This document shows, one piece after another, positions 26,190-42,162 of a DNA stretch of 56,560 bases. The stretch spans positions 1-56,560 of IMG/VR virus record IMGVR_UViG_3300020179_000002; one strand, written 5' to 3'. A program made the position numbers and the translations under genes. Origin of the DNA: a virus. Its lineage: Duplodnaviria; Caudoviricetes. Each line of letters opens with the position of its first letter. Within the stretch, counting starts at the first letter, position 1. The notes under the pieces were generated by a model. It saw only the letters and a list, made by a program, of their open reading frames with translations, searched no databases and was not told the origin of the DNA.

Positions 26190-26210
26190 AGGGTGGAGCA
26201 ATGCTAAGAC

Positions 26211-26239: not shown

Positions 26240-26292
26240 TATACCAGCCCACTGAGGTGGTGTCAATAGTAATAGATAGAGGAACGTAAAGG

Positions 26293-27846
26293 ATGGAAGG
26301 GTTAGTGAACGACTTCGCCGATTTATTCTCGGGGAACCTACGCTCTTACGGGCGATGGGATCCGGTCTCCGGGAACATGTCGACGGTTAAAGGGGAGGTC
26401 TCGAACGACCAGTACCTAGAGCACCTGGAGGGTGGAATCGGGTTGGGGATCGTTCCGGTGACAGACGGTGGCACCTGCAAGTTCGGGGCGATAGATGTGG
26501 ACAAGCACGAGTCGCCGGAGGATATCGATTTCGAGGCGCTGCAAGCCAAGATTAACGAGTACCGGCTCCCGCTGGTGATGTGCCGGACCAAACGCGGGGG
26601 TGCACACTTGTACCTTTTTGGCGAGGAGTACCTCCCGGCTAAGCAAGTGCGACGGGTGCTCGGGTCGTGGCGGGATGTGCTGGGGATCAAGCACAAGACC
26701 GAGATCTTCCCGAAGCAGGATTCGCTAGTCACTTCGGGTGGCGAGAAGGCGTTGGGTAACTGGATTAACCTTTGCTACTTCGACGCCGAGCAGACGCTCA
26801 GGTACGGATTCGACGATGACTGTAACAAGCTCTCGTTCGATCTTTTCCTGCAGTATGCACAGAGCAAGCGCGTTACTGTCGAGCAACTCGCTGAGCTTAC
26901 CCTTCGCGAGCACTTGGAGGCACCCCCTTGTATCCAAAAGATGATCCACTCCGGCGTCGAGTCCGGTGCTCGGAATGAGGCGCTGTACAACGTCACCGTG
27001 TACCTGAAGAGGGCGAGACCCGATAACTTTTTCGACGACGCGGTGGCGCTTAACGGTACGATGTTCGATAAACCGCTCGGGAACGCAGAAGCGAAAAAGG
27101 TTATTCGTTCCGCCTCACGGCGCGACTACCTGTACCGGTGCGCCGAGGAGCCCTGTAAGTCGCTTTGCGATCGTAAGGTATGTGTAACCCGCGAGTTCGG
27201 GATCTCGATGGACGAGAAAAAAGAACTCGACGCCCATGACGCGCTACCTCAGTTCTCGGAGCTGATCGAGTACCTGTCGGACCCGCCCCGGTGGGGGATA
27301 CACGTCAACGGGCAGTTGATTTCGAACATCCCGACCGTAGTGCTGAGGGACCCGAGCCTGATGGGTACGCTCATTTTCGAGCGACTCAAGATAAACATCC
27401 CGAAGATCACCCTCGATAATTGGCGCTCCCGGGTGCTGGATCCGCTGGTACCGAATATCCGGACGATCGAGGTGCCGAAAGAGGCGTCGGCGTCGGGGAT
27501 CGTGCAAGCGAAGTTCGCCGAGTTCGTGCAGAAGGCCGACCTGTCCAAGGACGGGAAGGATACCAATGATCGTAAAGCGCTGCTTCGCAACATCCCGATC
27601 GTGCAGGTCATCGATGGGACGCGTTGCGTGGTGTTCCGGGGAACCGCCTTCTCCGAGTACCTGAAGCGTAATAAAGCCGAGGTCCAGACCGGCATGGATC
27701 TGTGGACCACGCTGCGGCGCGATTGCAACGCTTCACACGACAAAATCCGCGTACCGGGTGGCAAGACCCTGAACGTCTGGTACGCTCCAATCACCGAGGA
27801 ATATGAGGTCAAGGTCGATGAGCCTGAATTTACCACCGAATTCTAA
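26293..27846 (+). CDS. AEP-superfamily primase(-polymerase) with PriCT domain
   Basis: FGAIDVD (motif I), RTKRGGAHLY (motif II), EIFPKQ, GNWINL; PriCT-like GARNEALYN. Confidence 0.8.
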   Translation: MEGLVNDFADLFSGNLRSYGRWDPVSGNMSTVKGEVSNDQYLEHLEGGIGLGIVPVTDGGTCKFGAIDVDKHESPEDIDFEALQAKINEYRLPLVMCRTKRGGAHLYLFGEEYLPAKQVRRVLGSWRDVLGIKHKTEIFPKQDSLVTSGGEKALGNWINLCYFDAEQTLRYGFDDDCNKLSFDLFLQYAQSKRVTVEQLAELTLREHLEAPPCIQKMIHSGVESGARNEALYNVTVYLKRARPDNFFDDAVALNGTMFDKPLGNAEAKKVIRSASRRDYLYRCAEEPCKSLCDRKVCVTREFGISMDEKKELDAHDALPQFSELIEYLSDPPRWGIHVNGQLISNIPTVVLRDPSLMGTLIFERLKINIPKITLDNWRSRVLDPLVPNIRTIEVPKEASASGIVQAKFAEFVQKADLSKDGKDTNDRKALLRNIPIVQVIDGTRCVVFRGTAFSEYLKRNKAEVQTGMDLWTTLRRDCNASHDKIRVPGGKTLNVWYAPITEEYEVKVDEPEFTTEF

Positions 27847-29557
27847 AGAAACGAGTATCGATTATGATCCCAAAACCGGACGGTTCATCGTCTCTTCCCC
27901 GCCTTGGCTTCTGGAAAAAGTGCGGCAGATTCCTAATCGTCGTTGGGATTCTCGTCGAAGAGTCTGGACTGCTCCTGCGCTCCGAGCTAATGCTGAGTAT
28001 ATACTCGTGGCTTTTCAGAGCTGTTGTCTCACTGACCGAGCTTCTGCTGCAGCTCAAGCGGCTCTCGAAAAATCCCGCCCTGTTCAGGGCTCAATGTTCC
28101 CGGCTGGTTATACTTTCCGAACGACTCCTCGGCCATATCAGAGACAGGCTCTTGACCGTGCATTCGACAAGAACGTCTTTGCGTATTATATGGACATGGG
28201 TACGGGGAAAACGAAGGTCTCTCTGGACTTGCTAGGCGCATTGTACTTGGACCAAAAGGTAGACCGTCTCCTGGTCGTTACTAAGTTCTCGACCCGCAAG
28301 AACTGGGAGCGTGAGATCGGCATCCATCTGCCCTTTGACGCGGATATCTTGGTGCTCGATACCGCTAAGCCCAGAGTGTTCGAGAAATGGAACACGACGG
28401 TCGACCGGTTCAAGATTCTTATCGTCGGCACCGAGTCTCTCGCCGCAGGGTCCGCCGTAAACTACGCGGACGCATTCCTGATGGTCTCGACTCGGGCCGC
28501 GATGGTGGTGGATGAGGCGCACATGATCAAGAACCATTCGGCGGTAAGGAGTAAGGCTTGCGTCTCGCTCGGCCGCAAAGCCGAGTACCGGTTCATCATG
28601 ACTGGCACCCCGGTAGCGAATGGTCCGATGGACGTTTTCATGCAATTCGAGTTCCTAGACCCAAATATTATTGGTATTGGAGATTATTATTCCTTCCGTA
28701 ATCGCTACGCGGTGATGGGTGGATTCGAGGGAAAGGAGATCGTCGGATACCAGAATCTGGATGAGTTGATCGAACTGATTTCCCCCTTTATCTTCCAGGT
28801 GCGTAAGTCCGAGGTACTTACCGAGTTGCCCCCGAAAGTTTTTACCGTGCGCGAAGTGCAGATGACTGATGAGCAAAAACGATTATATCGACAGATTTCT
28901 AAGGAAGATAAAGCAGTGTCCGGAGACCGGGGCGTCACCGTCAAGTCTGTGCTCGAGCGGATGCTCAGACTACAGGAGATCTGTGGCGGGGTTATTACGT
29001 ACGAGCGCAATCCCGATCTTTATAACCCGAACAAGTACGAGCATTGTCGTGTTTCAGGTAAGAATCCGAAGGTCGAAGAGCTAAAGGCGATAATGGAGGA
29101 GACTGACGGCGCGGTGATCATTTGGTGTCGATTCCTTGAGGAGATCGCGATGGTGAGCGAGTCCTTACGCGAGACTTACGGCCGCAGATCCGTAGTCGAG
29201 ATTCACGGCGAGATTGGGGAGCAGCAGCGAGACGATAACGTCCAGGCATTCCAACGTGGCGAGGCGCGATTCCTGGTCGGCAATGCAGCAACGGGCGGTG
29301 TGGGTCTAAATATGACTCGAGCCGAGACCGTGGTGTATTTCTCAAATTCATTCTCCTTCACCGATCGTGACCAATCCGAAGATCGTGCGCACCGAATAGG
29401 GCAGACGAAGTCGGTGACTTACATCGATCTAGTGTGCGAAGGGTCGGTGGACGAGGTTGTGCTCGATGCGCTACGGAGCAAAAAAGACGTCTCCGAGTAC
29501 GTGCGTCGAAGCATTAACGATGCAAACGGAGATATCTTACGTCAATTACTCTCCTAG
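27818..29557 (+). CDS. SNF2-family (SF2) helicase
   Basis: MDMGTGKT, DEAH, MTGTP, GGVGLNM and QSEDRAHRIGQ motifs; start could be 27803. Confidence 0.92.
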   Translation: MSLNLPPNSKETSIDYDPKTGRFIVSSPPWLLEKVRQIPNRRWDSRRRVWTAPALRANAEYILVAFQSCCLTDRASAAAQAALEKSRPVQGSMFPAGYTFRTTPRPYQRQALDRAFDKNVFAYYMDMGTGKTKVSLDLLGALYLDQKVDRLLVVTKFSTRKNWEREIGIHLPFDADILVLDTAKPRVFEKWNTTVDRFKILIVGTESLAAGSAVNYADAFLMVSTRAAMVVDEAHMIKNHSAVRSKACVSLGRKAEYRFIMTGTPVANGPMDVFMQFEFLDPNIIGIGDYYSFRNRYAVMGGFEGKEIVGYQNLDELIELISPFIFQVRKSEVLTELPPKVFTVREVQMTDEQKRLYRQISKEDKAVSGDRGVTVKSVLERMLRLQEICGGVITYERNPDLYNPNKYEHCRVSGKNPKVEELKAIMEETDGAVIIWCRFLEEIAMVSESLRETYGRRSVVEIHGEIGEQQRDDNVQAFQRGEARFLVGNAATGGVGLNMTRAETVVYFSNSFSFTDRDQSEDRAHRIGQTKSVTYIDLVCEGSVDEVVLDALRSKKDVSEYVRRSINDANGDILRQLLS

Positions 29558-29566
29558 TGGTATAAT
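29558..29566 (+). promoter_or_regulatory. Extended -10 promoter
   Basis: TGG-TATAAT followed by the ATAGAGGA RBS. Confidence 0.55.
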
Positions 29567-29595
29567 AGGAACCTGTTACATAGAGGAATAGAGCG

Positions 29596-29943
29596 ATGTC
29601 ATCCCGAGTATTTGTGACCCAAGAGGTCACCACCGCTAACTACACCGACCTCGATCGGTGGGGAGAGCCCACATTTTTAACCGCGTCTGAGGTCTCGAAT
29701 GTACGAACTTCGGTCCATAACCGTAAACTGGTACACGTCATTCGATCGAAGCTCGAAACCTTTGACCCGAAGTGTGACTATATCGCACCGTCTGGATCCC
29801 CAATTGTCACGGGGATTGTATTCGCTGTATTGGCAGCTCAGGGCGTCCGACAGTTCCCAGTGCTCAAGTGGAATAACCGAGACCGGGTATACACTCTGGT
29901 CCTTGTAGAAATCGATACGACGGAGGTGGAAGATGTCATCTGA
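29596..29943 (+). CDS. Hypothetical protein
   Basis: 115 aa, ATAGAGGA RBS. Confidence 0.75.
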   Translation: MSSRVFVTQEVTTANYTDLDRWGEPTFLTASEVSNVRTSVHNRKLVHVIRSKLETFDPKCDYIAPSGSPIVTGIVFAVLAAQGVRQFPVLKWNNRDRVYTLVLVEIDTTEVEDVI

Positions 29944-30376
29944 AGACGCGCTCAACGAGGAATTCCGGATATATGACGGATTGAAGCTCACCGAGCTGAT
30001 AATCCGAATGCACGAGATCCAGAGCAAGAAGGACCGGCTTGAAGCCCAAACGAAGGACCTTAACAAACATTTTGACTTCCTGCGAATCACCAAGATCCCC
30101 GGGCAGATGGAAGAGGAGGGCATCGACCGAATCAACGTCACCGGGGTAGGGCGGGTGTCGCTTACCGCAGATATGCACGTGTCGGTCAAGGCGGACAAGA
30201 AGGGCGATTTCTACCAGTGGTTGCGCGACAACGGTCGGTCGGACCTGATCGCCGAAACCGTGAATCCGTCGACGTTGAAAGCTGCGGTGAAGAGTATGGT
30301 CAAGAACGGTGAGGCGTACCCGGACGAACTTCTGAACGTTTCCCCTTTTACACGTGCCTCGATTACGAAGGCATAG
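29933..30376 (+). CDS. Conserved phage replication-region protein
   Basis: 147 aa, GGAGGT RBS; coiled coil plus WLRDNG...VNPSTLKA. Confidence 0.75.
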   Translation: MSSEDALNEEFRIYDGLKLTELIIRMHEIQSKKDRLEAQTKDLNKHFDFLRITKIPGQMEEEGIDRINVTGVGRVSLTADMHVSVKADKKGDFYQWLRDNGRSDLIAETVNPSTLKAAVKSMVKNGEAYPDELLNVSPFTRASITKA

Positions 30377-30445
30377 GAACGAATTCGGCGAAAGCTGAAT
30401 ACTGGCGGGAGGTCCCGTCTGTTAATTGTAATGGAGTAATCACAA

Positions 30446-31195
30446 ATGGCGAAAGCTAAATTATTAGTAACTACCACAAAGAGCGATGTTGATATTGTCA
30501 CTACGGACGCTCCTGAGTGGCTCCCGACCGGCATGACGCGGGGAACGGAGAACATCACGACGGACGACATGATCATTCCTCGAATCGAGGTGATTCAGGC
30601 GCTTTCCCCGGCGCGTAACAAAAAGGACTCCTCCTACATCGAAGGAGCCGAAGAGGGGATGCTGTTCAATAACGTGACCCGCGAGCTTTACGGCGAGTCG
30701 GTCACTGTGATTCCGGTGTTCTACACCAAGCAATACCTCATCTGGAAGGATCGAAAGCTCGGTGGCGGCGGCAGCAATGGCTTCCGGGGCGCATTCAACA
30801 CCCGCGAGGATGCACTGGCCGAGATCTCAAAGCTAGGTGAAGATGGGCTCGAAGCGATAGATACCGCGCAACACTTTGTGCTCGTGCATCACCTGGGGCA
30901 GGTTACCGAAGCTGTGCTTTCGATGAGCAAGTCGAAGATGAAGGTCAGCAAGCGTTGGAATTCGTTGGTGCGCATGACCAACATGGATTCGTTCGCTCGG
31001 GCTTACACGTTGTCTTCGGTCGAGGAGACCAACGCGCGGAACGAGTCCTATTACAATTTCAACATTGCACCGTTAGGATTCGTGAACAAATCGCTTTACG
31101 ATCGTGCGCTCCAGCTCTTCACCACGATCAAGTCCGGTGGCGTCAAGGTCAGCAACGATTACGATGCTGCCGATGTTGGTGAAACCGAGTACTGA
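30446..31195 (+). CDS. Putative single-stranded DNA-binding protein
   Basis: DMIIPRIEVIQALSP, SMSKSKMKVSKRWN and an acidic C-terminus; replication-module context. Confidence 0.55.
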   Translation: MAKAKLLVTTTKSDVDIVTTDAPEWLPTGMTRGTENITTDDMIIPRIEVIQALSPARNKKDSSYIEGAEEGMLFNNVTRELYGESVTVIPVFYTKQYLIWKDRKLGGGGSNGFRGAFNTREDALAEISKLGEDGLEAIDTAQHFVLVHHLGQVTEAVLSMSKSKMKVSKRWNSLVRMTNMDSFARAYTLSSVEETNARNESYYNFNIAPLGFVNKSLYDRALQLFTTIKSGGVKVSNDYDAADVGETEY

Positions 31196-32616
31196 TGCAC
31201 GTCCGGGCCATCTACGGTCCTCCTGGCACCGGTAAGACCACGGAGTTGCTGCGGTTAGTGCAGCACACACGCGAGACCGGTGTCCAGGCCGAGCGGATAG
31301 CGTTTCTATCGTTCACTCGTGCAGCGGCGAGCGAAGCGTTATCCAGGCTCGGTCTGAAGCGGTCCGATAACGTATCGACGATTCACGCGATGGCGTTTCG
31401 CTCCCTAGGGTTGAAGCAAGCTCAGGTGGTGGACCATATCAAGCTGCGTGAGTTCTCCAAAGTCACCGGCATTCCGATCGTCGGCAAGTCCCCCGAGGAC
31501 GATGAAGAGCGCACCGACGGGGACGCTTACTTTGATCTTCTTAACTATGCACGAAACACCTTCAGTCACCCCTCCGAAATCTACGAGATTTCGGATCGTC
31601 CGGGCACTCGTGCAGAATACGAGATGTTCGTCTCCGCGTACGCTAACTGGAAGAAGACCTACGGTTATTACGATTTCACCGATATGCTTGAGCGAGCCAG
31701 TTCGGGAGTTATTCGACAAGGGATTGAGGTCCTTTTCGTCGACGAGGCACAAGACCTTTCACCTTTGCAGTGGCGTGTTATTGAGCGGCTCGCAAAACGC
31801 GCACATCAGGTCTTTGTCGCGGGGGATGATGACCAAGCAATATATGCTTGGTCGGGCGCTGATCCACACGGTATGGCAAAATTCTGCTCGAAGCATAAGG
31901 GTGATAGCGTTGTGCTCTCGCTCTCGCATCGACTTCCTGTTGCAGTGCACCAAAAGTCCCAGTCCCTCATTCGTCGAGTCCTTTTCCGCGTGGATAAGAA
32001 GTTCGATTCTTGTGGACGCTCAGGCACAGTACGGAACCATGGGTCAATGGCGTCGGTTGATGTTGAACATGGCGAGGATACGCTGGTTTTGGCACGGACG
32101 CATTCAATTATGCGCGAGGCTGAAAACGCGCTTATCGACCGCCGCATCCCCTATGTTCGCGAATCGGGCCGTCCGGGAATGTTCCAGAATCGGTACGCCG
32201 TTGGCCTTCGATCCTACAACAAGATTCGTAACGGAAAACGTCTATCAGACTCTGATCGATCGGCTCTCTTTGCAGTGGGATCAAGGGAGACAAAGGCAGC
32301 GCTTGAAAGAAACGATTACATGGCAGTCGTGGCATCCCCCTTCTATATCGCGATCGAAATGCCACACCGCGTTATCGATTACTACCAGGAGGTCGACATC
32401 GATGTGGAGCCGACTATACGACTCTCCACTATTCACGCAGCTAAGGGCCATGAGGCGAATCGCGTCATTGTACTTACGGATATGACGAACCGCGTGGCGG
32501 ATAATGCGCACACTAAGCCCGACGATGAGATCCGGGTGTGGTACGTGGCGTTGACGCGCAGCAAAGACGTGTTAGATATCGTGGAGGGCTACAATGGCTA
32601 TAACCTAGATAATTGA
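31195..32616 (+). CDS. UvrD/Rep-like SF1 helicase
   Basis: GPPGTGKT, STIH, DEAQD, GDDDQAIY, STIHAAKGHE and YVALTR motifs. Confidence 0.92.
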   Translation: MHVRAIYGPPGTGKTTELLRLVQHTRETGVQAERIAFLSFTRAAASEALSRLGLKRSDNVSTIHAMAFRSLGLKQAQVVDHIKLREFSKVTGIPIVGKSPEDDEERTDGDAYFDLLNYARNTFSHPSEIYEISDRPGTRAEYEMFVSAYANWKKTYGYYDFTDMLERASSGVIRQGIEVLFVDEAQDLSPLQWRVIERLAKRAHQVFVAGDDDQAIYAWSGADPHGMAKFCSKHKGDSVVLSLSHRLPVAVHQKSQSLIRRVLFRVDKKFDSCGRSGTVRNHGSMASVDVEHGEDTLVLARTHSIMREAENALIDRRIPYVRESGRPGMFQNRYAVGLRSYNKIRNGKRLSDSDRSALFAVGSRETKAALERNDYMAVVASPFYIAIEMPHRVIDYYQEVDIDVEPTIRLSTIHAAKGHEANRVIVLTDMTNRVADNAHTKPDDEIRVWYVALTRSKDVLDIVEGYNGYNLDN

Positions 32617-32641
32617 CAGATAATCCCACGAGTGATATAAT
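32613..32641 (+). promoter_or_regulatory. Consensus sigma70 promoter driving the polymerase/Z operon
   Basis: TTGACA-N17-TATAAT with TG extension. Confidence 0.85.
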
Positions 32642-32668
32642 AGACCCTTCACCACCATAGAGGACTTA

Positions 32669-32944
32669 ATGAAACAGTACGACAACACCAATTCCGGTCT
32701 GCTGATGCGGAATGAAAATCGGACCACAGACTCGCACCCCGAGTTCACTGGATCGCTCAACGTTGAAGGTCGCGACTTCTGGGTCTCGGCCTGGGTCAAC
32801 ACTGGCAGACCCGGGTCCAAGATCGAGGGGAAGCGCTACTTCTCGATTAAAGTCACGCCGAAGGACGCTTCGAACCGTGCCAACACGGGTCGCAAGAACG
32901 CGGCGACGGATTTCGACGATATAGACGACGATATCCCATTTTGA
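32669..32944 (+). CDS. Small SSB-like protein (DUF736-like)
   Basis: HPEFTGSLNVEG...W; C-terminal DDDIPF SSB tail. Confidence 0.65.
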   Translation: MKQYDNTNSGLLMRNENRTTDSHPEFTGSLNVEGRDFWVSAWVNTGRPGSKIEGKRYFSIKVTPKDASNRANTGRKNAATDFDDIDDDIPF

Positions 32945-34782
32945 TGAACATCCCACGCATTGACGGCCAAATCCCCTACTTGGTGGTGGACACCGAAACC
33001 ACCGGCCTGAAGTGGTGGGAGGATGAGGTATTCGGAGTCTCGATCGCACTTCCCGACGGCACCGCCGGGTACTGGGATGTACGGGCGACGCCGAAGATCC
33101 TGAATTGGTTAAGCGACCTTATCGCCGAAGATCGGGTCGGGGTGTGGGTCGGGCATAATTTCAAGTTCGACCTGCACTTCCTGCGTGAAGCTCGGGTGAG
33201 AATTCCGACCGACCGGATCGATTGCACGATGATTCGGGCGGCGCTAATCAACGAGCATGAACCGACCTACGGGCTGGATTTCTTGGCGCGGAAATACGTT
33301 GGGGCGCAGAAGGACACGGAGATCTACGATGAACTGGCAAAGATATTTGGGGGTCGTGCTACACGCAACGCGCAGATGCCGAACATTTCACGCGCTCCTC
33401 AAGAGGTCGTGGCGCGGTATGCAATCCAGGACGCGGTAGTCACGCGAAAGCTTTATTTGTGGCAGCGCGACGAGATCGAGAAGCAGAACTTGCATCGAGT
33501 CCATAATCTCGAGCGCGAACTAATGCCCGTCATTATCGACATGGAGACCGAGGGTGTGCGGGTCGACGTCGATATGGCCGAGAGAGCCTCCCGACACCTC
33601 ACGAAGCGCATCAACGACATGCAGCGGGACTTGAATACGGAGGCCGGGTTCGAGATCAACCCGAACCCCTCCGGATCGATCGCGGAGCTATTCAAGCCGA
33701 CCCTAGGGGAAGACAATGAGTGGTACCTGATCGACGGGACCCGGGCAGGGAAGACTGATGGCGGAAAGGCATCAATCGACGCCGATTGCTTGCGTCGTAT
33801 GAAGCACCCAGCGGCGAGCATGATCCTCGATCTCCGCAAAATGCTCAAGACCCGCGACACTTTCATTCAGGGCCATATCCTCGGACACCAGCAGGACGGG
33901 GTGATACACTGCAACTACAACCAGACCAAGAACGATGCGGAGGCTGGGACCGGCACCGGGCGGCTCTCGATCACGAATCCAGCGCTGCAGCAAATCCCGT
34001 CGCGGGACGTATCGATCAAATCGCTCGTGCGCCCGATCTTCAAGGCGGACCACGGCGCGAAATGGCTTGGGCTCGACTGGTCGCAGTTCGAATTCCGGGT
34101 GGCGAATCACTACGGGCAGGTGCCGTCGATCCTGGAAGCTTACCGGGCGAATCCGAATTTGGATTTCCACCAGTTGGTGTCCGACATGACCGGTATTCCC
34201 CGGAACGCGCAGTACGCCGGGGGTCCCTCCTCGAAGGCGATTAATCTCGGGCTTGCTTTTAATATGGGCTCCGGGCGACTGGCCCAAGAGTGTGGACTCC
34301 CCTACACCGAGGAGACGGGGCCGAACGGGAACGCGTACCTGAAGGCGGGACCCGAGGCGATGGAGCTTTTCGAGCGATACCACGCCGCGAACCCCGGGAT
34401 GCGGAACATGGCGAGCAAGGCGAGTTCGATCGCCAAAGAGCGCGGGTTTGTGCACTCGATCATGGGGCGGCATATCCGATTTCCGGGTGGGCAATTCGTC
34501 CACAAGGCGTCGGGACTGATTTACCAAGCGACGTCGGCCGATTGCATGAAGATGAAGCTCATTGAACTGCACCGCTACTTAACCGGTCACGGGGTGGGGC
34601 GGCTGCTGTTGTCCGTGCACGACGAGGTCGGGATCTCGCTCGATAAGGATTCGCTGAATCACGCCGAGAAGATCGCGCAGATTTACACTACGTTTAACGG
34701 TATCGATTGCCCGATCAAGCTCCGGGTACCGATTACCTGTGATTGGGGCTTGGGTGAAGACTGGTACGAGGCAAAAGGATGA
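32944..34782 (+). CDS. dpoZ: Family A DNA polymerase with 3'-5' exonuclease, DpoZ-like
   Basis: DTETTG exo I, DWSQFEFR motif A, KAINLGLAFNMG motif B (L/F in place of canonical F/Y), VHDE motif C; overlaps purZ. Confidence 0.85.
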   Translation: MNIPRIDGQIPYLVVDTETTGLKWWEDEVFGVSIALPDGTAGYWDVRATPKILNWLSDLIAEDRVGVWVGHNFKFDLHFLREARVRIPTDRIDCTMIRAALINEHEPTYGLDFLARKYVGAQKDTEIYDELAKIFGGRATRNAQMPNISRAPQEVVARYAIQDAVVTRKLYLWQRDEIEKQNLHRVHNLERELMPVIIDMETEGVRVDVDMAERASRHLTKRINDMQRDLNTEAGFEINPNPSGSIAELFKPTLGEDNEWYLIDGTRAGKTDGGKASIDADCLRRMKHPAASMILDLRKMLKTRDTFIQGHILGHQQDGVIHCNYNQTKNDAEAGTGTGRLSITNPALQQIPSRDVSIKSLVRPIFKADHGAKWLGLDWSQFEFRVANHYGQVPSILEAYRANPNLDFHQLVSDMTGIPRNAQYAGGPSSKAINLGLAFNMGSGRLAQECGLPYTEETGPNGNAYLKAGPEAMELFERYHAANPGMRNMASKASSIAKERGFVHSIMGRHIRFPGGQFVHKASGLIYQATSADCMKMKLIELHRYLTGHGVGRLLLSVHDEVGISLDKDSLNHAEKIAQIYTTFNGIDCPIKLRVPITCDWGLGEDWYEAKG

Positions 34783-35894
34783 AGAAAATCGATTTGGTCA
34801 TTGACCTTCAATTCGGTAGCACAGGTAAGGGGTTGATAGTTGGCACCCTCGCCACCTACGAGGGCTACGACACGGTGATTACCGCGTGGGCACCCAACGC
34901 GGGGCATACGTTCATTGATGCCCGAGGGCGAAAGTTCGTACATACGCATCTGGCCAACGGCATTGTAGCCCCCTACCTTCGTAGGGTACTGTTGGGTCCA
35001 GGCTCGGTCATCAATCCGGCGCAGCTCCTGGCCGAGATCGAGCAGTGCAAGGATATAATCGAGGCAAAGCAGATCAAGATCATGATTCACCCGCATGCAG
35101 CGGTGGTGACTGACGAGCACTTGGAAGAGGAGGCGCAAAGCATGACGGCGATCGGCTCGACCAAGAAGGGCGTGGGCGCGGCGATGATCTCCCGAATCCG
35201 TCGGCAGCCGAACAAACCGGCCGTCGCGAAGGATTTCTTGGAACTCGTAAATCTGGTGTGCACCACCGAGCAGTACACGCGAGCGATCCACGATTCGACC
35301 CATATCCTAATCGAGGGTGCACAGGGTGTGGGGCTTTCCATGTACCACGGCTTTTACCCCTACACCACCTCGCGGGACGTCAGCACCTTCCAGATCCTGG
35401 CCGATTGTGGAATCCCGGCGGCGATCTTCAATCAGGCCTCCTGTCGTGTGGTTGGCACCGCGCGGACCTACCCGATCCGGGTGGCCAATCGATTCGATTC
35501 GGAAGGGCGACAGGTGGGCTTCAGTGGGCCGGGACACCTGGACCAGACCGAGATTTCGTTCGAGCAGATCGGCCAGCCGACCGAACTCACCACGGTGACC
35601 AAGCTCCCCAGGCGCATTTTTACATTCAGTCGCCAGCAGATCCTCGAGGCGATCGACCTTTCGGGCGCGAGTGAAGTGTTCCTGAACTTCGCGAATTATG
35701 TGCAGGACGAACAGTACCTGTTATCGATCGTGAACGCGATCGAGGAGACCGGGGCTCGAATTAAATGGCTGGGTCTAGGTCCAGATATTCACTCGGTGGT
35801 GTTAATGTCCGAAGGTGATAACTACACGGCGCGGCGCAAAGAGATCGTGTCGAAATGGCAGCGTTACCGATTACGCAACAAAGCAGGAGCTTAA
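34779..35894 (+). CDS. purZ: N6-succino-2-amino-dAMP synthetase PurZ
   Basis: PurA-family motifs (NAGHT, EGAQG, YPYTTSR) with PurZ signatures GSTGKG (S for PurA D), TTVTKLPRR and NFAN in place of TKLD. Confidence 0.95.
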   Translation: MKKIDLVIDLQFGSTGKGLIVGTLATYEGYDTVITAWAPNAGHTFIDARGRKFVHTHLANGIVAPYLRRVLLGPGSVINPAQLLAEIEQCKDIIEAKQIKIMIHPHAAVVTDEHLEEEAQSMTAIGSTKKGVGAAMISRIRRQPNKPAVAKDFLELVNLVCTTEQYTRAIHDSTHILIEGAQGVGLSMYHGFYPYTTSRDVSTFQILADCGIPAAIFNQASCRVVGTARTYPIRVANRFDSEGRQVGFSGPGHLDQTEISFEQIGQPTELTTVTKLPRRIFTFSRQQILEAIDLSGASEVFLNFANYVQDEQYLLSIVNAIEETGARIKWLGLGPDIHSVVLMSEGDNYTARRKEIVSKWQRYRLRNKAGA

Positions 35895-35897
35895 CTC

Positions 35898-36416
35898 ATG
35901 GCGAATGAATTTATAATGAACTCGTTACTTCATACCAACGAGCAAAACCCCCTCCCCTGGTCCACTCACCCAGATAACGACTCGGTGGTGGTAGATGCCA
36001 ACGGCGCGGCGGTCGCGAACTTCGAGGTGAGGCACCAACACAAGGGGGTACTCGCGAATTGCGAGAAGAATGCAGACTTGGCTGTGCGATCCGTTAACGC
36101 ATTCGCCAAGCGCGGAGGGGCAGATATCCGGCGGCTGCAGCACGTGGTGACCACTTGGGCGGACGAGGTGTTCCCGAATAGACAGACACCTGACATTCTG
36201 CTTAAGCTCTACGAGGAGGTGGGTGAGTACGCCCGTAACCCGAAGGCTGCGGCAGAATTTGCCGATATAATGATTTTGCTGCTCGATCTAGCGGCGATTA
36301 ACGGTATCGATATTCAAAAGGCAGTAACCGAAAAAATGGTAATCAATGTCGGACGTACTTGGGCCGTGGACTCTCAAACCCGTATTATGAGGCATACACA
36401 TGATGAAAAACCGTAA
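35898..36416 (+). CDS. mazZ: MazG-like (d)GTP/dATP diphosphohydrolase MazZ (DUF550-like) with an N-terminal extension
   Basis: WADEVFP...KLYEEVGE...EFADIMILLLD...KMVINVGRTW; directly after purZ. Confidence 0.85.
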   Translation: MANEFIMNSLLHTNEQNPLPWSTHPDNDSVVVDANGAAVANFEVRHQHKGVLANCEKNADLAVRSVNAFAKRGGADIRRLQHVVTTWADEVFPNRQTPDILLKLYEEVGEYARNPKAAAEFADIMILLLDLAAINGIDIQKAVTEKMVINVGRTWAVDSQTRIMRHTHDEKP

Positions 36417-36615
36417 TGAAGTATTCGAGATTTGGTATACTCGCCGATTCGGCGAATTATTAGGTGAACAGGACTCGCACACCAGAGAGTTCGTGCGAGA
36501 GATATGGAATCAGGCGCTCAGTCGTGCCGTGGACCACTTCGAGTTCGAGAACTTCGAACCACTTGAAAGTGGGCAGATCATCGACCGACTCGAGCGCCTT
36601 AAAGCGATAAGGTGA
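36400..36615 (+). CDS. Hypothetical protein inside the Z cassette
   Basis: 71 aa overlapping both mazZ and datZ. Confidence 0.7.
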   Translation: MMKNRNEVFEIWYTRRFGELLGEQDSHTREFVREIWNQALSRAVDHFEFENFEPLESGQIIDRLERLKAIR

Positions 36616-37169
36616 CCAGGATGGGTCTTTCTCTAGCTGAACAACTCCGTGCTTCGCACGTCAAACGGTGGCAGATCGTCAACGTCTCGCGCACTCAGAA
36701 TCTTGCGGAGCATCATTTTAACGTCACCCTCATCGTCGGTCAACTCGCTCGACACTGCAGGGACAAGCAGCTGCTCGATCCCCAGTACGCGTTGAGGCTC
36801 ATGCACTGGTCGCTCTCGCACGATATGGTCGAGGTTCGCACAGGGGACACCCCTACGCCCTACAAGCGGGTGCTGAAGCAGGTGGGTGGATTGGACATCA
36901 TCGACAATTCCGAGGAGGTCGTGGACCCGGGGTACATCGCCGACAAGCGTCGGATCGCTGGGACGCCGATCGAAATGTACGTGGAGATCGCGGACTTGAT
37001 CGAGGCGATTTGGTTCCTGCATGACCACGGGATCGGGCAGAACGCACTCAAAGTTCAATCGGGTCTTGAGGCGTCGCTCGACCGCTGTGTGCAGAAGTGG
37101 CATGGGGTTTTCGAGGAATTAGATATTGATTTCGCGGTGCGCTGCGTGAGCGAGGAGATCGGAATATGA
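36612..37169 (+). CDS. datZ: HD-domain dATP triphosphohydrolase DatZ
   Basis: HVKRW...NLAEH...HDMVEVRTGDTPTP...ADLIEA, a YfbR/DatZ-type HD motif set in the purZ operon. Confidence 0.9.
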   Translation: MTRMGLSLAEQLRASHVKRWQIVNVSRTQNLAEHHFNVTLIVGQLARHCRDKQLLDPQYALRLMHWSLSHDMVEVRTGDTPTPYKRVLKQVGGLDIIDNSEEVVDPGYIADKRRIAGTPIEMYVEIADLIEAIWFLHDHGIGQNALKVQSGLEASLDRCVQKWHGVFEELDIDFAVRCVSEEIGI

Positions 37170-37366
37170 AATGCGTAAAATGTGGCGGTATCACCCAGGT
37201 CACGACCGTGTACCAAAACGCGGATGGTGGAACGCGTCGTCGCAGGGCATGCACGGTCTGCCAATTCCGGTTCACCACTCGCGAGTACCCGTCGATTACG
37301 GATCCGAAGCTCAAAGAGTACTACTTGGAGACGGATGTTGACACGGATACCCCGCCCGTGGTATAA
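37166..37366 (+). CDS. NrdR-like Zn-ribbon protein (no ATP cone)
   Basis: MKCVKC...RRRRACTVCQFRFTTRE matches the NrdR N-terminal pattern. Confidence 0.8.
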   Translation: MKCVKCGGITQVTTVYQNADGGTRRRRACTVCQFRFTTREYPSITDPKLKEYYLETDVDTDTPPVV

Positions 37367-37367
37367 T
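37338..37367 (+). promoter_or_regulatory. Sigma70 promoter for the deacetylase operon
   Basis: TTGACA-N18-TATAAT with TG extension. Confidence 0.75.
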
Positions 37368-37396
37368 TAGGGTCTTAACACACATAGAGGAACTTA

Positions 37397-38227
37397 ATGA
37401 CCCCGATTTTTTACAATCTCCGCCAGTCCTGCGACTTCGACTTTCCGTCTTATCGCAAGATCCCGATGTTCGTGCGACAGGCCGCGCGACCACTGCTCAC
37501 CGATTTTGAACCGTTGAAGAACGTCGAGATAATCGCCGCGCATTCAATTAAGTACGTGGTGAATGTGTTCTCGGGCAAGACCCCCAATGGATTCGGAAAT
37601 ACCGACCCGGTGCTTAACGAGACACTCAGGTACACGAATGCGAACTTCGTGGCTGCGACCCGGCACGTCAGCGAAAAGAAAGCGGAGGTTGCATGCTCAG
37701 CGACCCAGGGCTTCCACCATGCGGGGTTCGACTCCGGGGGCGGGTATTGCACATTCAACGGGTTGATGATCGCGGCGCTCGGCAGCGAAGCGATCAGACC
37801 GGCGCTAATCTTCGACGGTGATGGCCACTACGGGGATGGGACGGACGATGTCATTGGGGCGCTGGCCACGCACGACCGAGTGCGGCACGTGACGAATCTA
37901 GATATGCGATCGTTCGTCTCGCGCTACAAGCCAAACGCTCATGATTGGGAAGTGTGGGCCTCCGGCTTGATTTCGTCGTCGAAGCCTAGTATAATAATGT
38001 ACCAAGCCGGTGCTGATGCATGGATCGAGGACCCTTATGGTGCTGGGTACCTCACTCTTGAGGGTCTGCGAAATCGTGACCTCGGGATCTTTCGCGCAGC
38101 CAGGAAGTCTAAGATCCCTCTCGTGTGGAATCTCGCCGGTGGATACTGCAAAGATGTTCAGCGCACGGTAGACGTGCATATTCAGACACTCAGAGCCAGC
38201 GACGAGGTGTATTATGGCGGGACCTAG
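37397..38227 (+). CDS. Zn-dependent histone-deacetylase-family amidohydrolase
   Basis: GFHHA, GYCTFN, DGDGHYGDGT, QAGADAWIEDP and LAGGY; the catalytic and metal motifs are all present. Confidence 0.9.
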   Translation: MTPIFYNLRQSCDFDFPSYRKIPMFVRQAARPLLTDFEPLKNVEIIAAHSIKYVVNVFSGKTPNGFGNTDPVLNETLRYTNANFVAATRHVSEKKAEVACSATQGFHHAGFDSGGGYCTFNGLMIAALGSEAIRPALIFDGDGHYGDGTDDVIGALATHDRVRHVTNLDMRSFVSRYKPNAHDWEVWASGLISSSKPSIIMYQAGADAWIEDPYGAGYLTLEGLRNRDLGIFRAARKSKIPLVWNLAGGYCKDVQRTVDVHIQTLRASDEVYYGGT

Positions 38228-40862
38228 CAAAGCACTCACATTCTTGGACCTTATGAATCAAGTCGGGGCTGGAACTCGCATGATAGCGAATATCCCGGGG
38301 GCGAAGCGCATCCCGGAATCTTTCGCCAGAGCGCAGAAAGGGCTAAGCCCTGATGAAATCATCGAGCAGTATAACATGAAGGAGATGTTCGGGAGAGATC
38401 AGAAGACGGGAGTGGTAAGACTATTAACACAGTCTCCGGGCTATTCATCTTCCTCGTTGCCCGCGAACGATCGAGCACGGATGGCGCGAGGAAAGCTGCC
38501 GCTAGAAAGTAAAATAACACAGCAGGTGGTAGACCCCTCGAATCCAAGGAACATTTTGTCACAATTTGAGTTGAAGCCTGACCGAGATTTAGCCACCGGT
38601 AGTTATGCCGACGAGCTTTACCGCCGGATGTACGATCGTGCCGAGAATGCGCAACGGGCGAAAATCGTTCCGGATGATGTCGGTGTGTACGATATCGGGG
38701 CGCTGAATGCTGGTCGGTTAGGAGGTGAGGGGTTCGGTGCCATGCAGTATGCGGCACTCTACGACCAACTTCGTGCCGCAGGAGCTTTTTCAGGTCCCAC
38801 GGGACTCACTGATATTAACGAGTTGCGCAGGCTGGGTAACGTGATGTCCTACGGTCTGCGACACGGCGATTACGAGAACATCGCTCCGGTCGTGAGCGCG
38901 TGGGGTCGATCGCCTCAATTATTTCATCGTGCAGAACAAACGGACTGGCTGGCTCGCCCCTTGATGGACATCTTGCAGCAGGGTAAAGGCGATCCGATTT
39001 TCGACGCAGCGGTGGCATTGAAACCCGTGGACTTGGCTAACATGACACCGGACCAGATCACCGGGGTGCTAGGCCTGAAAGAAGCGCAGTTAAATCGTAT
39101 CGCAGGTCCGGTACGTGAACCGATCATGCTCGAGGCGGCGGATCCGGGTCTGCTTCGTCATTTGGCGGTCCCCGCACTCACCGACCCCAACGCCTACGGC
39201 ATCCAGAAGGGCATTGGCCCCAACACCCTGGGCCGTGCGGCGACGGTGGAGCAGCTGATCGAGAAGATCCTCGCGGGTCGTACCGGAGAGGAAGCAGCGG
39301 AGGAGATTCTTAATCAGTCCAAACGTCGCGGGATGAATCTAGAGGAAGGATTCAAGGGTAGATACAAAGACGGTGGATCGGTCGCTTTATTCTCCGGGGG
39401 TGGTGGGGTGAAAAAGACCGTGGCTGAGATGGCTGCGGAACTCGCGGCTAAAAGCACGAAGACCCCTGATATGTCTAGGCGTAAATTCATGTCTCTTGGT
39501 AATGTGTTTAACTCGCCGACCTCGACACCTAATCTGCCAGTGACCGCCACCGAAGCGGCGAAGATGTCGCAAGACCCAGCGTCATCGGCTATCGAGAAAA
39601 TAACGGAGGCTCCCGTCTCCAGACGGCAGGTACTCCAAGGCGCTTTGGCGCAGGGTGCGCAACGAATGCTACCTACCGCAGCGATGCAGCCCGTCAAAGA
39701 TGTAGCATCTGAATTTGCGAAATCGATGATGAGACATGTTCCGGCACCCTCTATCGGTGGGTTAGTAGCGCAAGGACTGAAGATGGGAATGGGTGATTAT
39801 GAAATCATGCGATTCGTGCAGTCCGCGATGCCAGAGGCAGACCCCAAAAAGCTAGCCTACGACATATCTTTATTGCCTGACATTATGCGAAATCCATCGG
39901 AATACGTCGAAGATCCGGATTGGCAAATGATGCATGATAAATTCGTCGGCGACGAAAGTCTGATGAATGTTTTCGGGCGGCTGGTGACTCCTTATAAAGT
40001 CGATTCTCCGATGAGTCTTCGCCGCACAATGCGTGAGATTAAAGATATCAATCCCAATAAATACGGTGAATTGAAGTCGATAGCTCGTGATATTTTTCAT
40101 TCCTCAAATCCTAACGCGGGGAACCATGATTATTCCGGCGGCGGTAAAGTAACGAAGACCGTGGCTGAAATGGCTGCGGAACTCGCGGCTAAAGGTACCA
40201 AAACCCCTGATATGTCCAGGCGTAAATTCATGTCTCTAGGTAGTGTGTTTGACTCACCAACCTCGACGCCTAATCTACCGGTGACCGCTACTGAAGCAGC
40301 AAAGATGTCGCAGGACCCAACATTATCGGCCATCGAGAAAATAGCGGAAACTCCCGTTTCTAGACGACAAGTGCTTCAGGGTGCTTTAGCTCAGGGTGCA
40401 CAACGAGTGCTACCTGGGATCTCGCCTACCAGTGCTCTATCACGTGCTATTGATGCGGCCACTAGCGCACCACAAACAGCAAGCACCATCCCGGGTCTTG
40501 TGGCGCAGGGTTTAAACATGAAGCTTAAAGGGCAAGAATTGGTCGACTTTGTAAATCGTTCGATGCCACCGAGCGACGTTCATACTCCAAAATCGCTCAA
40601 GTTTACGACGGAACTCCTAGCTTCCAACATCAAAAGGCCTGAACCCTATATCGACATGTACTATGATTATGACCCTTCTTCGATTCGTTTACAAATCCTC
40701 ACCGATCAGTTGTTTCCCGAAGCTAAGAGGCCACCAAGCGGAATGGGTTTGCGACCGACGTTGCGCGAGATTCAAGAGTATAATCCCAAAGCGTATGATA
40801 AGCTCGTAAAATCAGCGACTACACTCAGGGATCAAATCGCCAAGGATCTCGAAGATGACTAA
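38214..40862 (+). CDS. Modular polyprotein: GNAT-like N-terminal domain plus two twin-arginine repeat modules
   Basis: 882 aa; GG-motif junctions YKDGG/FSGGG/YSGGG; internal duplication. Confidence 0.75.
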   Translation: MAGPSKALTFLDLMNQVGAGTRMIANIPGAKRIPESFARAQKGLSPDEIIEQYNMKEMFGRDQKTGVVRLLTQSPGYSSSSLPANDRARMARGKLPLESKITQQVVDPSNPRNILSQFELKPDRDLATGSYADELYRRMYDRAENAQRAKIVPDDVGVYDIGALNAGRLGGEGFGAMQYAALYDQLRAAGAFSGPTGLTDINELRRLGNVMSYGLRHGDYENIAPVVSAWGRSPQLFHRAEQTDWLARPLMDILQQGKGDPIFDAAVALKPVDLANMTPDQITGVLGLKEAQLNRIAGPVREPIMLEAADPGLLRHLAVPALTDPNAYGIQKGIGPNTLGRAATVEQLIEKILAGRTGEEAAEEILNQSKRRGMNLEEGFKGRYKDGGSVALFSGGGGVKKTVAEMAAELAAKSTKTPDMSRRKFMSLGNVFNSPTSTPNLPVTATEAAKMSQDPASSAIEKITEAPVSRRQVLQGALAQGAQRMLPTAAMQPVKDVASEFAKSMMRHVPAPSIGGLVAQGLKMGMGDYEIMRFVQSAMPEADPKKLAYDISLLPDIMRNPSEYVEDPDWQMMHDKFVGDESLMNVFGRLVTPYKVDSPMSLRRTMREIKDINPNKYGELKSIARDIFHSSNPNAGNHDYSGGGKVTKTVAEMAAELAAKGTKTPDMSRRKFMSLGSVFDSPTSTPNLPVTATEAAKMSQDPTLSAIEKIAETPVSRRQVLQGALAQGAQRVLPGISPTSALSRAIDAATSAPQTASTIPGLVAQGLNMKLKGQELVDFVNRSMPPSDVHTPKSLKFTTELLASNIKRPEPYIDMYYDYDPSSIRLQILTDQLFPEAKRPPSGMGLRPTLREIQEYNPKAYDKLVKSATTLRDQIAKDLEDD
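39414..40406 (+). repeat. Diverged direct repeat of about 250 bp (39414-39665 vs 40155-40406)
   Basis: Both copies encode KTVAEMAAELAAK...SRRQVLQGALAQGAQR; differences are mostly synonymous; period 741 bp. Confidence 0.9.
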
Positions 40863-40881
40863 CCAAGGAGAATGATAGATT

Positions 40882-41145
40882 ATGAATGTTGATCTCAATG
40901 CAATACTCGAGGAGCGAGGCTCCGAATACGGCGATTTCACCGAACAGGCGCAAATCTCCCAGGCGATGCAGGACATAACTAGGGCTGGGCGCAGCTACAC
41001 CACGATGGACTCCTACCAGAGGGAGGCGCTCGCGATGATTTTACACAAAATATCTAGGATCGTTAATGGAAACACTCGGAACGTTGACTCGTGGGCGGAT
41101 ATCGCCGGATATGCCACACTCGTTGCAAACCGGCTACAGAAGTGA
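40882..41145 (+). CDS. DUF6378-like protein
   Basis: ERGSEYGDF...KISRIVNG...DSWADIAGYA. Confidence 0.75.
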   Translation: MNVDLNAILEERGSEYGDFTEQAQISQAMQDITRAGRSYTTMDSYQREALAMILHKISRIVNGNTRNVDSWADIAGYATLVANRLQK

Positions 41146-41152: not shown

Positions 41153-41181
41153 TTGACAGATTGTAGCACCCGTGTTATAAT
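41153..41181 (+). promoter_or_regulatory. Consensus early sigma70 promoter
   Basis: TTGACA-N17-TATAAT with TG extension. Confidence 0.85.
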
Positions 41182-41216
41182 AGAGTCTCCAGTAAACAAA
41201 CCGATAGAGGACAAAA

Positions 41217-41501
41217 ATGGCAAAGAAGACACCAGTAATCACCGAGCAGATGGTCGACGAATTGGCGCGGGTCCGCCAGCAGCTTGCCGAGCTTGTGGCG
41301 CGGGAGAAAGCGCTGAAGGAGAGCTTTCGCGAGGCGGGTGCAGCCGTCTACAGGGGCCAGCAGTTCCAGGTCGAAATTACGTTCTCATCCCAGAGTCGGT
41401 TAGACTCGCAAGCGGTGAAGGATGCCCTTGGGCCGAAGTGGATTGCCGAGCACCAGAAAGCGGTGGAACAGATGAATATCCGCTCGATGGTCCTGGTGTG
41501 A
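41217..41501 (+). CDS. Hypothetical early protein
   Basis: 94 aa, ATAGAGGA RBS. Confidence 0.75.
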   Translation: MAKKTPVITEQMVDELARVRQQLAELVAREKALKESFREAGAAVYRGQQFQVEITFSSQSRLDSQAVKDALGPKWIAEHQKAVEQMNIRSMVLV

Positions 41502-41737
41502 TGAAGCCCCGATACGTGACGACGCGTAAAGGGGTCCGGATCGGGTACACGTACGTACCCCGTCCGGTTTACGATCAAAGCGGTGACATGGACCGGCTGC
41601 AAACCGCGTTGCTGCACCGCCGCACGGACGCCTGGGCGGGAGCGAAAGATCTCCTGGCCTATGCGATCGGGATGGCGGCGCTTCTTTCACTTCTCTGGGC
41701 CAAGGACCTTTACCAATGGATAAGCAGTTTTGTTTAG
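41501..41737 (+). CDS. Hypothetical membrane protein
   Basis: ATG overlaps TGA; TTRKGVRIG motif plus a C-terminal hydrophobic segment. Confidence 0.65.
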   Translation: MKPRYVTTRKGVRIGYTYVPRPVYDQSGDMDRLQTALLHRRTDAWAGAKDLLAYAIGMAALLSLLWAKDLYQWISSFV

Positions 41738-41763
41738 CGACAGTAAACCTAGGAGAAAGACCA

Positions 41764-42069
41764 ATGAGTAAAAACATATCAGCAAAGACACCAGCAGATG
41801 GGCCGGATTACGAGCGCGGATTTATTGACGGGATGCAGTGCCAGATGCGATCAAGCGTTGAAAAGGCTATTCGCGAGCAGCCCACCAAGGTCTTTGGTCC
41901 CGGTCTAGAGCAGATCCTCAACAGCGCCGGATTTCATAAACAGCGCGAGTGGGTAGGGCTGACCGACCGCGACATCGACGAGTGTTATTTCGCCGCGCGA
42001 AAACCAGAATTCGATCTCTGGGCTTTCGCCGAGGAGATCGAGGAAAGACTCAAAGAGAAAAACACTTAA
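41764..42069 (+). CDS. Hypothetical protein
   Basis: AGGAG RBS; YERGFIDGM and WVGLTD motifs. Confidence 0.65.
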   Translation: MSKNISAKTPADGPDYERGFIDGMQCQMRSSVEKAIREQPTKVFGPGLEQILNSAGFHKQREWVGLTDRDIDECYFAARKPEFDLWAFAEEIEERLKEKNT

Positions 42070-42071
42070 CT

Positions 42072-42091
42072 ACCGTTCGTCGGACGACTGG
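42072..42091. promoter_or_regulatory. 20-bp promoter-proximal repeat, copy 1
   Basis: ACCGTTCGTCGGACGACTGG, identical at 45525-45544. Confidence 0.7.
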
Positions 42092-42100
42092 CCAGATTCA

Positions 42101-42129: not shown

Positions 42130-42162
42130 ATAGGTTCATCAATCACAATAGAGGACAGCAAA

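Follow-up and report, generated by a model that had tools for sequence, protein, structure and literature searches.

A probable 2-aminoadenine (Z) genome operon of the phiVC8/SH-Ab 15497 type in a complete uncultivated freshwater phage

Does the region between 32613 and 37169 of an uncultivated phage genome encode a system for replacing adenine by 2-aminoadenine (Z), and is the DNA of this phage likely to carry Z? The genome is IMG/VR record IMGVR_UViG_3300020179_000002, a whole virus record of 56,560 bases that is rated 100% complete and has direct terminal repeats (bases 1–127 are exactly repeated at 56434–56560); its full length is referred to here as the window. A preliminary description had read the region as a complete Z-genome operon in which genes for a polymerase (DpoZ), PurZ, MazZ, a small open reading frame (ORF), and DatZ follow one another. 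We conclude, with a probability of about 0.88, that the region is a functional Z-genome operon of the type found in phages phiVC8 and SH-Ab 15497. Among all PDB sequences, the top solved-structure match of each of the four enzymes is a characterised Z enzyme of phiVC8 or S-2L, and the four family assignments made in the preliminary description were upheld by sequence, residue, phylogenetic, and synteny tests, as detailed below.

A single consensus sigma-70 promoter precedes seven intact ORFs, which are laid out as follows.

32613–32641, + strand: sigma-70 promoter TTGACA-17-TATAAT, with perfect hexamers (12/12) and TG before the -10
32669–32944, + strand: SSB-like gene, 91 aa, first gene of the unit
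32941–34782, + strand: DpoZ gene, likely start ATG at 32944, overlapping the TGA of the upstream ORF
34779–35894, + strand: PurZ gene, 371 aa
35898–36416, + strand: MazZ gene, 172 aa
36400–36615, + strand: orf71, a conserved small helical protein (tblastn and AF2 model)
36612–37169, + strand: DatZ gene, 185 aa
37166–37366, + strand: NrdR-like Zn-ribbon gene, 66 aa, last ORF of the unit, overlapping the datZ stop codon
37338–37367, + strand: next perfect sigma-70 promoter (18-nt spacer, TG extension), preceding a deacetylase-like gene

Neighbouring genes in the unit overlap by 1–17 nt or are separated by a gap of 3 nt, and no terminator-like site was found on the + strand between 32613 and 38901. 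The gene positions given previously were confirmed by the ORF list, and the single consensus promoter is present as well, but the earlier gene count (four genes behind one promoter, five in the title) proved too low; the five named genes are present, while the SSB-like and NrdR-like Zn-ribbon ORFs had been missed. A promoter before the SSB-like gene is conserved in position among related loci, with a score of at least 11/12 in 37 of 47 and of 12/12 in 23 of 47, although its spacer varies.

The predicted PurZ matched PF00709 (E = 2.3e-33) and phrog_1211 ('2-aminooxy adenylosuccinate synthetase'; E = 1.1e-83); its best PDB matches were PurZ of phiVC8 (6fm1, E = 1.5e-82) and of S-2L (7odx, E = 7.2e-76), followed more weakly by archaeal PurA and a PurA-like protein near 1e-24 (7vf6, E = 1.2e-24) and by E. 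coli PurA (E = 1e-13). The sequence motifs quoted in the preliminary description are all present (GSTGKG at residue 13, TTVTKLPRR at 271, and NFAN at 303), as is the contrast with PurA that it had drawn, with Salmonella PurA presenting GDEGKG at 13 and TKLD at 331. All five specificity residues (F12, S14, T262, F295, and Y298 in phiVC8 numbering) are identical to those of phiVC8, while Salmonella PurA presents W, D, G, K, and V at the same positions; S14, T262, F295, and Y298 are kept in all 64 full-length IMG/VR relatives. In the PurZ0 references (Wayne, Ghobes, and SBlackberry), residue 295 is M or F and residue 298 is Q. F295 and Y298 have been reported to stabilise the adenine ring of ATP, and an S14D change to abolish selectivity (bioRxiv 10.1101/2025.10.22.683976). 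One paper is inconsistent on the cofactor, giving 'ATP and GTP, respectively' for PurZ0 and PurZ in its section 24 and ATP for PurZ in its introduction (PMC12884076); the wording in section 24 is probably a word-order slip, and we followed the introduction together with bioRxiv 10.1101/2025.10.22.683976.

A PurZ tree (IQ-TREE quick search, LG+G4, 74 rows, SH-aLRT support) was built from 64 IMG/VR relatives, phiVC8, SH-Ab 15497, S-2L, OH, the three PurZ0 proteins, Keanu, and Salmonella PurA; it carries long-branch warnings for S-2L, OH, Ghobes, and PurA, and was run without bootstrap and without an archaeal PurA row. The window protein falls inside the PurZ side (SH-aLRT 97), apart from PurZ0 and Keanu (96) and from Salmonella PurA. 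Within PurZ, it belongs to a 48-row clade made up only of uncultivated contigs (95) and, inside that clade, to a nine-row subclade (100). Clade position and residues F295 and Y298 thus point to an ATP-type PurZ rather than to PurZ0 or PurA, as the preliminary description had proposed.

The same evidence bears on the possibility that this PurA homologue is an ordinary auxiliary purine gene, converting IMP with GTP to adenylosuccinate, and that its neighbours are generic nucleotide-pool enzymes. Pfam does give adenylosuccinate synthetase only, and many database homologues are so named. Yet S14 stands in place of the catalytic Asp of PurA, a replacement (Asp13 to Ser) that has been described as a PurZ feature (PMC12884076), the positions concerned with the 2-amino group and with ATP binding carry PurZ residues, the protein is nested in the PurZ clade, and its gene is linked with those for DatZ, MazZ, and DpoZ in 58 of the 70 distinct related loci obtained by a PurZ scan of IMG/VR; we regard an ordinary purine gene as very improbable.

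Four large genome contigs labelled Acidoferrum, Bacteroidales (4.27 Mb), Terriglobia, and Dehalococcoidia (L142, L143, L144, and L149) also carry PurZ-like genes with a QFGSTG-type N-terminal motif and 31–33% identity, with no DpoZ, MazZ, or DatZ match nearby; these may be cellular PurA variants or prophage genes. In one related contig (L047, 6001–7110), the PurZ match range translates with two stop codons, which could reflect a frameshift, a pseudogene, or a coordinate offset; this row was dropped from the alignment.

The predicted MazZ, a MazG-like dATP/dGTP pyrophosphohydrolase by family, matched PF04447 (DUF550-type; 30.1 bits against a cut-off of 23) and phrog_801, and aligned over residues 75–166 with S-2L MazZ (PDB 7ody, E = 5.1e-13); it is also 43% identical to the DUF550 part of a 385-aa protein of SH-Ab 15497. 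Its EEVGE and EFAD stretches, which correspond to the acidic metal-binding motifs of the family, align with those of the S-2L protein. The predicted DatZ matched PF12917 and PF13023 (HD domain), phrog_7076 ('dATP triphosphohydrolase'; E = 9.5e-27), and S-2L DatZ (PDB 6zpa, E = 3e-15). W20, I22, H34, the HD pair, and a later Asp all align with S-2L DatZ, and these residues include the HD-domain metal ligands. W20 has been described as the sugar determinant and I22 as the base determinant (bioRxiv 10.1101/2025.10.22.683976).

DpoZ combines a family A polymerase domain (PF00476, E = 1.8e-48) with a 3'-5' exonuclease domain (PF01612, E = 2.9e-15) and matched the phiVC8 polymerase (PDB 7pbk) with E = 6.4e-142, the next matches being Klenow and Taq polymerases at about 1e-40. 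Its alignment contains visible DTE, NxxFD, and YAxxD stretches as well as HDE in motif C. PMC8599892 lists, as DpoZ features, insertions G349–G353 in the palm, A442–P448 at helix O, and P473–K491 at the finger tip, residues L455, F459, G548, and S583, and, in the exonuclease, R161 (or K) and M165 (or I/A). The window protein has each of these insertions (residues 331–336, 423–429, and 454–468) and also keeps L455, F459, and G548 and, in exonuclease helix E2, R161 and M165 (its R142 and M146). The top 25 tblastn matches of DpoZ all belong to phages that are also in the PurZ match list, and identity to the polymerases of PurZ phages is 41.6–47.5%, followed by a drop to at most 29.7% (in a spread of 45 of the 235 matching records).

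The order of these genes is conserved as well. The 58 loci mentioned above encode DpoZ, PurZ, MazZ, and DatZ on one strand and in the order seen here; judging from coordinates, 11 of the other 12 loci are cut by the contig end where the missing gene would be expected, and one (L062) has no MazZ match in 13 kb. Contigs of metagenome-assembled genomes (MAGs) also present the dpoZ-purZ-mazZ-datZ set near a helicase and an SSB. The preliminary description had considered the completeness of the pathway its most striking aspect, a view that we do not share, as this set beside helicase and SSB genes is the usual phiVC8-type layout, found in SH-Ab 15497, in the 58 IMG/VR loci, and in the MAG contigs; the same arrangement has been described for Z phages (PMC12884076).

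The operon is preceded by a set of replication genes, with which it forms one module.

26293–32616, + strand: upstream replication genes (primase, helicase, phrog_2378 protein, Pam3 gp34-like protein, and UvrD-like helicase)

The stretch from primase to DatZ (26293–37169) is collinear with 21245–34019 of the characterised Z-genome siphovirus SH-Ab 15497 (MG674163.1, Acinetobacter), at 28–49% identity. The two phages share the primase, a helicase, the phrog_2378 protein, the Pam3 gp34-like protein, a UvrD/PcrA helicase, DpoZ with the canonical HDE in motif C, SSB, PurZ, a DUF550-type MazZ, and DatZ, as well as perfect extended -10 promoters. In SH-Ab 15497, however, the order of SSB and DpoZ is swapped, MazZ is part of the 385-aa fusion instead of a 172-aa protein, and no match was found to orf71, the Zn-ribbon gene, the deacetylase-like gene, or the structural genes of the window. 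The Vibrio phage phiVC8 (JF712866.1) provides the best PDB matches for DpoZ (7pbk) and PurZ (structures 6fm0 and 6fm1) and shares the DpoZ and PurZ residues (S583 excepted) and insertions described above, but its DpoZ and PurZ are only 42% and 47% identical to those of the window, its genome has 39 kb, and it shows no match to the window MazZ; instead, its small ORF p26 is similar to an NTP pyrophosphohydrolase from Ochrobactrum phage OH. The cyanophage S-2L (MW334946.1) shares the purZ-mazZ-datZ triad order, provides the best PDB matches for MazZ and DatZ, and has the same W20, I22, and metal ligands in DatZ; it differs in having PrimPol and no DpoZ, in being a tape-measure-bearing siphovirus of a cyanobacterium, and in lacking consensus sigma-70 promoters.

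The structural genes have other relatives. They match MW202545.1 (Caudoviricetes sp., 57.5 kb, uncultivated) in capsid (90%), portal (59%), GroES-like protein (54%), terminase (47%), and the adaptor and tail proteins, and Caulobacter phage RW also shares the structural module (capsid 78%). Neither whole record presented a PurZ match; the replication-plus-Z module is absent from MW202545.1, and RW presented only one weak helicase match (23%). By gene content, the genome is a mosaic of a replication-plus-Z module and a structural module with different nearest relatives. An 11-kb replication-plus-Z module common to otherwise unrelated siphovirus-type Z phages, combined with a structural module common to purZ-less phages, indicates that the Z trait is carried by a mobile replisome module, in agreement with the close connections reported between Z-phage groups and canonical-DNA phages (PMC12884076).

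Two halves whose nearest relatives differ (SH-Ab 15497 and MW202545.1) are also what would be expected of a metagenomic assembly chimera that combined a Z replication module with structural genes of unrelated origin. Against such an artefact stand four further complete or near-complete IMG/VR records of 57–59 kb that carry both modules (PurZ 62–91% identical), the terminal repeats and 100% completeness rating of the record, and the sequencing runs. Of the sampled words, 84–92% occur in three lake-water runs, one of which may be the source sample, and the contigs of these runs leave none of the 30 bins of 26000–41000 uncovered; a fourth run, labelled drinking water and from another study, holds a diverged relative with contigs that bridge the dpoZ/purZ and purZ/mazZ junctions. 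A chimera is therefore the least probable of the explanations weighed here, with a chance that is close to negligible, and the mosaic is taken to be genuine.

If the enzymes have the activities predicted by homology, a pathway that follows the steps described in PMC12884076 can be proposed. Transcription of the seven genes, which would be translationally coupled, would be initiated by the sigma-70 RNA polymerase of the host from the extended -10 promoter at 32613. MazZ would convert dGTP and dATP to their monophosphates, and PurZ would form dSMP from dGMP, Asp, and ATP. Host enzymes would presumably carry dSMP on to dZTP, since genes for the subsequent reactions were not found in the phage. 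DatZ would strip dATP of its triphosphate, and DpoZ, together with the phage SSB, primase, and helicases, would replicate the genome with dZTP in place of dATP, so that virion DNA may be largely or wholly Z-substituted, a step that the preliminary description had likewise treated as an inference.

Whether the window DNA carries a trace of such substitution was approached through hexamer palindromes; protection of A-containing restriction sites should leave avoidance confined to the GC-only class. Palindromes of that class are depleted in the window (52 against 135.2 expected, ratio 0.38; CCGCGG, 0 against 25.7), while A/T-containing palindromes are close to expectation (767 against 855.1, ratio 0.90), with GAGCTC (0 against 14.6) as an exception; of the six palindromes with the strongest depletion, five belong to the GC-only class. 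The PurZ-less MW202545.1, in contrast, avoids both classes (GC-only 0.29, A/T-containing 0.63), and for 15 A/T-containing palindromes it has 4 copies against 179.8 expected, where the window has 330 against 373.2. The known PurZ phages stood well apart from an initial set of six controls (p = 0.003); once four PurZ phages and nine controls had been added, the ranges overlapped. The controls came from the terminase and polymerase match lists and were chosen before their values were known, with near-duplicates of Caulobacter RW, Brevundimonas phage Polewnik, and MW202777.1 left out.

Several observations weigh against the operon being a functional Z system or against its DNA being Z. For the A/T-containing class, the ratios of ten PurZ phages (0.72–0.92) overlap with those of 15 PurZ-less controls (0.38–0.88; one-sided Mann-Whitney p = 0.004), five of the 15 controls lie at 0.80–0.88, and the control Pseudomonas phage ZC01 also combines strong GC-only with milder A/T avoidance. 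The Pfam match of MazZ is only moderate (E = 5.8e-07), and the protein has an unexplained 74-aa N-terminal extension. DpoZ lacks S583 of phiVC8 and has the canonical E there, as does the SH-Ab 15497 polymerase. No PurB, guanylate or adenylate kinase, or NDK, and likewise no NDT/DmtZ, was found among the phage ORFs scanned (nearly all those of at least 50 aa), so that the later steps depend on the host. Finally, Z cannot be read from a sequence or from Illumina-derived contigs. As a sequence-only detector of Z-DNA, palindrome avoidance was rejected as a diagnostic because the ranges overlap with 15 controls; the pattern in the window is compatible with Z-DNA, and a thin literature search returned nothing linking 2-aminoadenine or diaminopurine to restriction-site avoidance. 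With respect to S583, PMC8599892 places the SH-Ab 15497 polymerase in the phiVC8-like subfamily (DpoZ-2); since this member of the same subfamily also has E, S583 would, on this evidence, be a trait of phiVC8 and not of DpoZ-2.

Another reading is a genuine cassette whose substitution is partial or conditional, with virions containing mixed A/Z DNA. For E. coli plasmids expressing purZ-mazZ-datZ-dpoZ, Table 2 of PMC12944874 includes values of only 29%, 38%, and 42% Z, and A/T-containing palindromes are not wholly free of avoidance, as the absence of GAGCTC illustrates. The devices for excluding dATP, DatZ and an exonuclease-bearing DpoZ, are, however, present, intact, and conserved in the clade, and phages with the same gene set have been described as fully substituted (PMC12884076). 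Mixed DNA is thus improbable, though less so than an ordinary purine gene, and largely or wholly Z-substituted virion DNA remains the preferred reading.

The promoter of the operon belongs to a set of near-perfect copies that are found across the window. Five perfect matches were counted against 0.00 expected in 100 shuffles, and all five are TG-extended; besides those at 32613 and 37338, the copies are the following.

26238–26266, − strand: perfect TG-extended sigma-70 promoter (12/12)
41153–41181, + strand: perfect TG-extended sigma-70 promoter (12/12)
42101: 11/12 promoter copy
44105–44133, + strand: perfect TG-extended sigma-70 promoter (12/12)
45555: 11/12 promoter copy

The four promoters from 41153 to 45555 also have downstream sequence in common (repeat family D6). 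All seven known proteobacterial PurZ phages (2–5 each, all 24 with TG) and four complete relatives (6, 11, 7, and 1) contain perfect 12/12 promoters, as compared to none in 15 PurZ-less phages, nine of which are PolA-encoding phages of gamma- and betaproteobacteria; none were found in S-2L, Wayne, or Ghobes. TG-extended promoters with a score of at least 11/12 number 4–8 per proteobacterial PurZ phage against 0–2 in the nine controls with gamma- or betaproteobacterial hosts (p = 0.0003), although the controls were not matched by host, and neither MW202545.1 nor RW has any promoter of at least 11/12. One might suppose that proteobacterial Z phages need 'super-consensus' sigma-70 promoters (perfect -35, -10, and extended -10 TG) because the three hydrogen bonds of each Z pair make a Z-containing TATAAT element harder to melt; on this view, the 32613 promoter would be an adaptation to Z-DNA. 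This interpretation is weakened by the non-independence of the samples, as a homologous replication module is common to the PurZ phages and a similar spacer to five of them; there may be no more than about four independent lineages among the known PurZ phages, and simple inheritance could account for the promoter trait. We consider the adaptation speculative, with odds clearly below even, and a thin search found no paper among its top 15 of 1,033 results that joins Z-DNA to promoter melting.

Three of the ORFs in the operon accompany the four enzymes. The SSB-like protein matched phrog_7364 (E = 2.4e-14) and phrog_18154 (E = 1.5e-13) with no Pfam match, and is 37% identical to the product of the SSB gene adjoining purZ in SH-Ab 15497. 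A tblastn match to orf71 was found directly behind mazZ in 47 of the 70 related loci; orf71 has no Pfam or PHROG match, does not resemble the small ORFs that occupy the corresponding positions in phiVC8, OH, S-2L, and SH-Ab 15497, and in the Atlas matched unnamed viral clusters only (0.88–0.89, below the lead level of 0.9). Its AF2 model is a three-helix protein (pLDDT 76) for which Foldseek returned no PDB match (best E = 9.3). The Zn-ribbon protein (PF22811, 31.7 bits against a cut-off of 27.2) matches the N-terminal domain of NrdR only, with no ATP-cone, and might act on host nrd operators; its gene presented a tblastn match in 51 of the 70 loci and is absent from SH-Ab 15497 and phiVC8.

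In relatives, the interval between orf71 and datZ is a hotspot for variable insertions that reach 2.2 kb (e.g., L035 7563–9570, L036 5093–7293, and L066 7564–9673) and carry small ORFs without a known family; a 211-aa ORF recurs there in seven loci, and the window has no insert at this place. Pfam scanning of 10 of the 89 insert ORFs yielded one HNH endonuclease and nine ORFs without a match.

The next gene downstream of the operon encodes a deacetylase-like protein.

37397–38227, + strand: histone-deacetylase-fold Zn amidohydrolase, 276 aa (PF00850, E = 4.4e-21)

Its best PDB match is 9gkv (E = 5.2e-16), with the HH, DxDxH..GDGT, and GGY catalytic stretches aligned. The gene immediately follows the Z unit behind a separate consensus promoter and has a match in 49 of the 70 related loci; no match was found in SH-Ab 15497, phiVC8, or MW202545.1, and neither of two Z-phage survey papers mentions a deacetylase. 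It is a clade-specific neighbour, and nothing ties it to Z synthesis.

With respect to lineage, megablast of the region against deposited phages gave no DNA-level match, and the closest PurZ among 50,697 deposited phage records is 47% identical; the genome adds a new, uncultivated phage from fresh water to the phiVC8-type Z phages. Its lineage accounts for 48 of the 74 rows of the PurZ tree and consists of uncultivated contigs of approximately 53–59 kb, with four complete relatives that have nearly the whole gene set. No host could be named; a scan of genome contigs with the single PurZ gave no match, and a search with a nine-row PurZ alignment gave 17 MAG contigs (at most 53% identity), whose taxon labels were mixed and contradicted one another. 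The characterisation of the lineage as podovirus-like and GroES-encoding was borne out by a Cpn10 match (26.8 bits against a cut-off of 21.1), an SU10-adaptor-like protein, and tailspike and ejection-protein matches; PHROGs and Pfam scans of the window yielded no match to a tail tube, sheath, or tape-measure protein, and the virion is predicted to be podovirus-like. Nearly all genes across the window are on the + strand, and no tRNA genes were found in it.

Some further features of the window were observed. A 1,812-aa protein (15662–21100) contains tandem 30-nt and 48-nt repeats (D2 and D7), has no family match, and is conserved over 80% of its length in the closest relative only (3–15% in other relatives). 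An 882-aa protein (38214–40862) and a 682-aa protein (49502–51550) each contain a duplicated unit approximately 741 nt apart and share a repeated GG-KKTV-EMA-EL motif (repeats D1 and D3), with no above-threshold family match; the 882-aa protein also contains the twin-arginine-like stretches SRRKFMSLG and SRRQVLQGA, each twice. A 35-nt element with a GTTCCA/TGGAAC inverted repeat (repeat D8) occurs in four copies (25937–26195 and 47023–47283), arranged as two pairs with spacings of 224 and 226 nt at both borders of the early region; these elements look like operators or, alternatively, paralogous small genes.

The Z pathway, its enzymes, and the usual gene order were already established, and the cassette itself represents no new biology; what is added is a large uncultivated freshwater lineage of Z phages. 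Together with the PurZ-less phage MW202545.1 (capsid 90%), this phage provides a natural matched pair in which the effects of Z-DNA on packaging, restriction avoidance, and transcription could be compared with the virion nearly constant. The promoter pattern, if real, would raise the issue of how transcription by the host RNA polymerase begins on Z-DNA; were it an adaptation to the modified DNA, the promoter at 32613 would be a part of the Z system rather than an incidental strong promoter.

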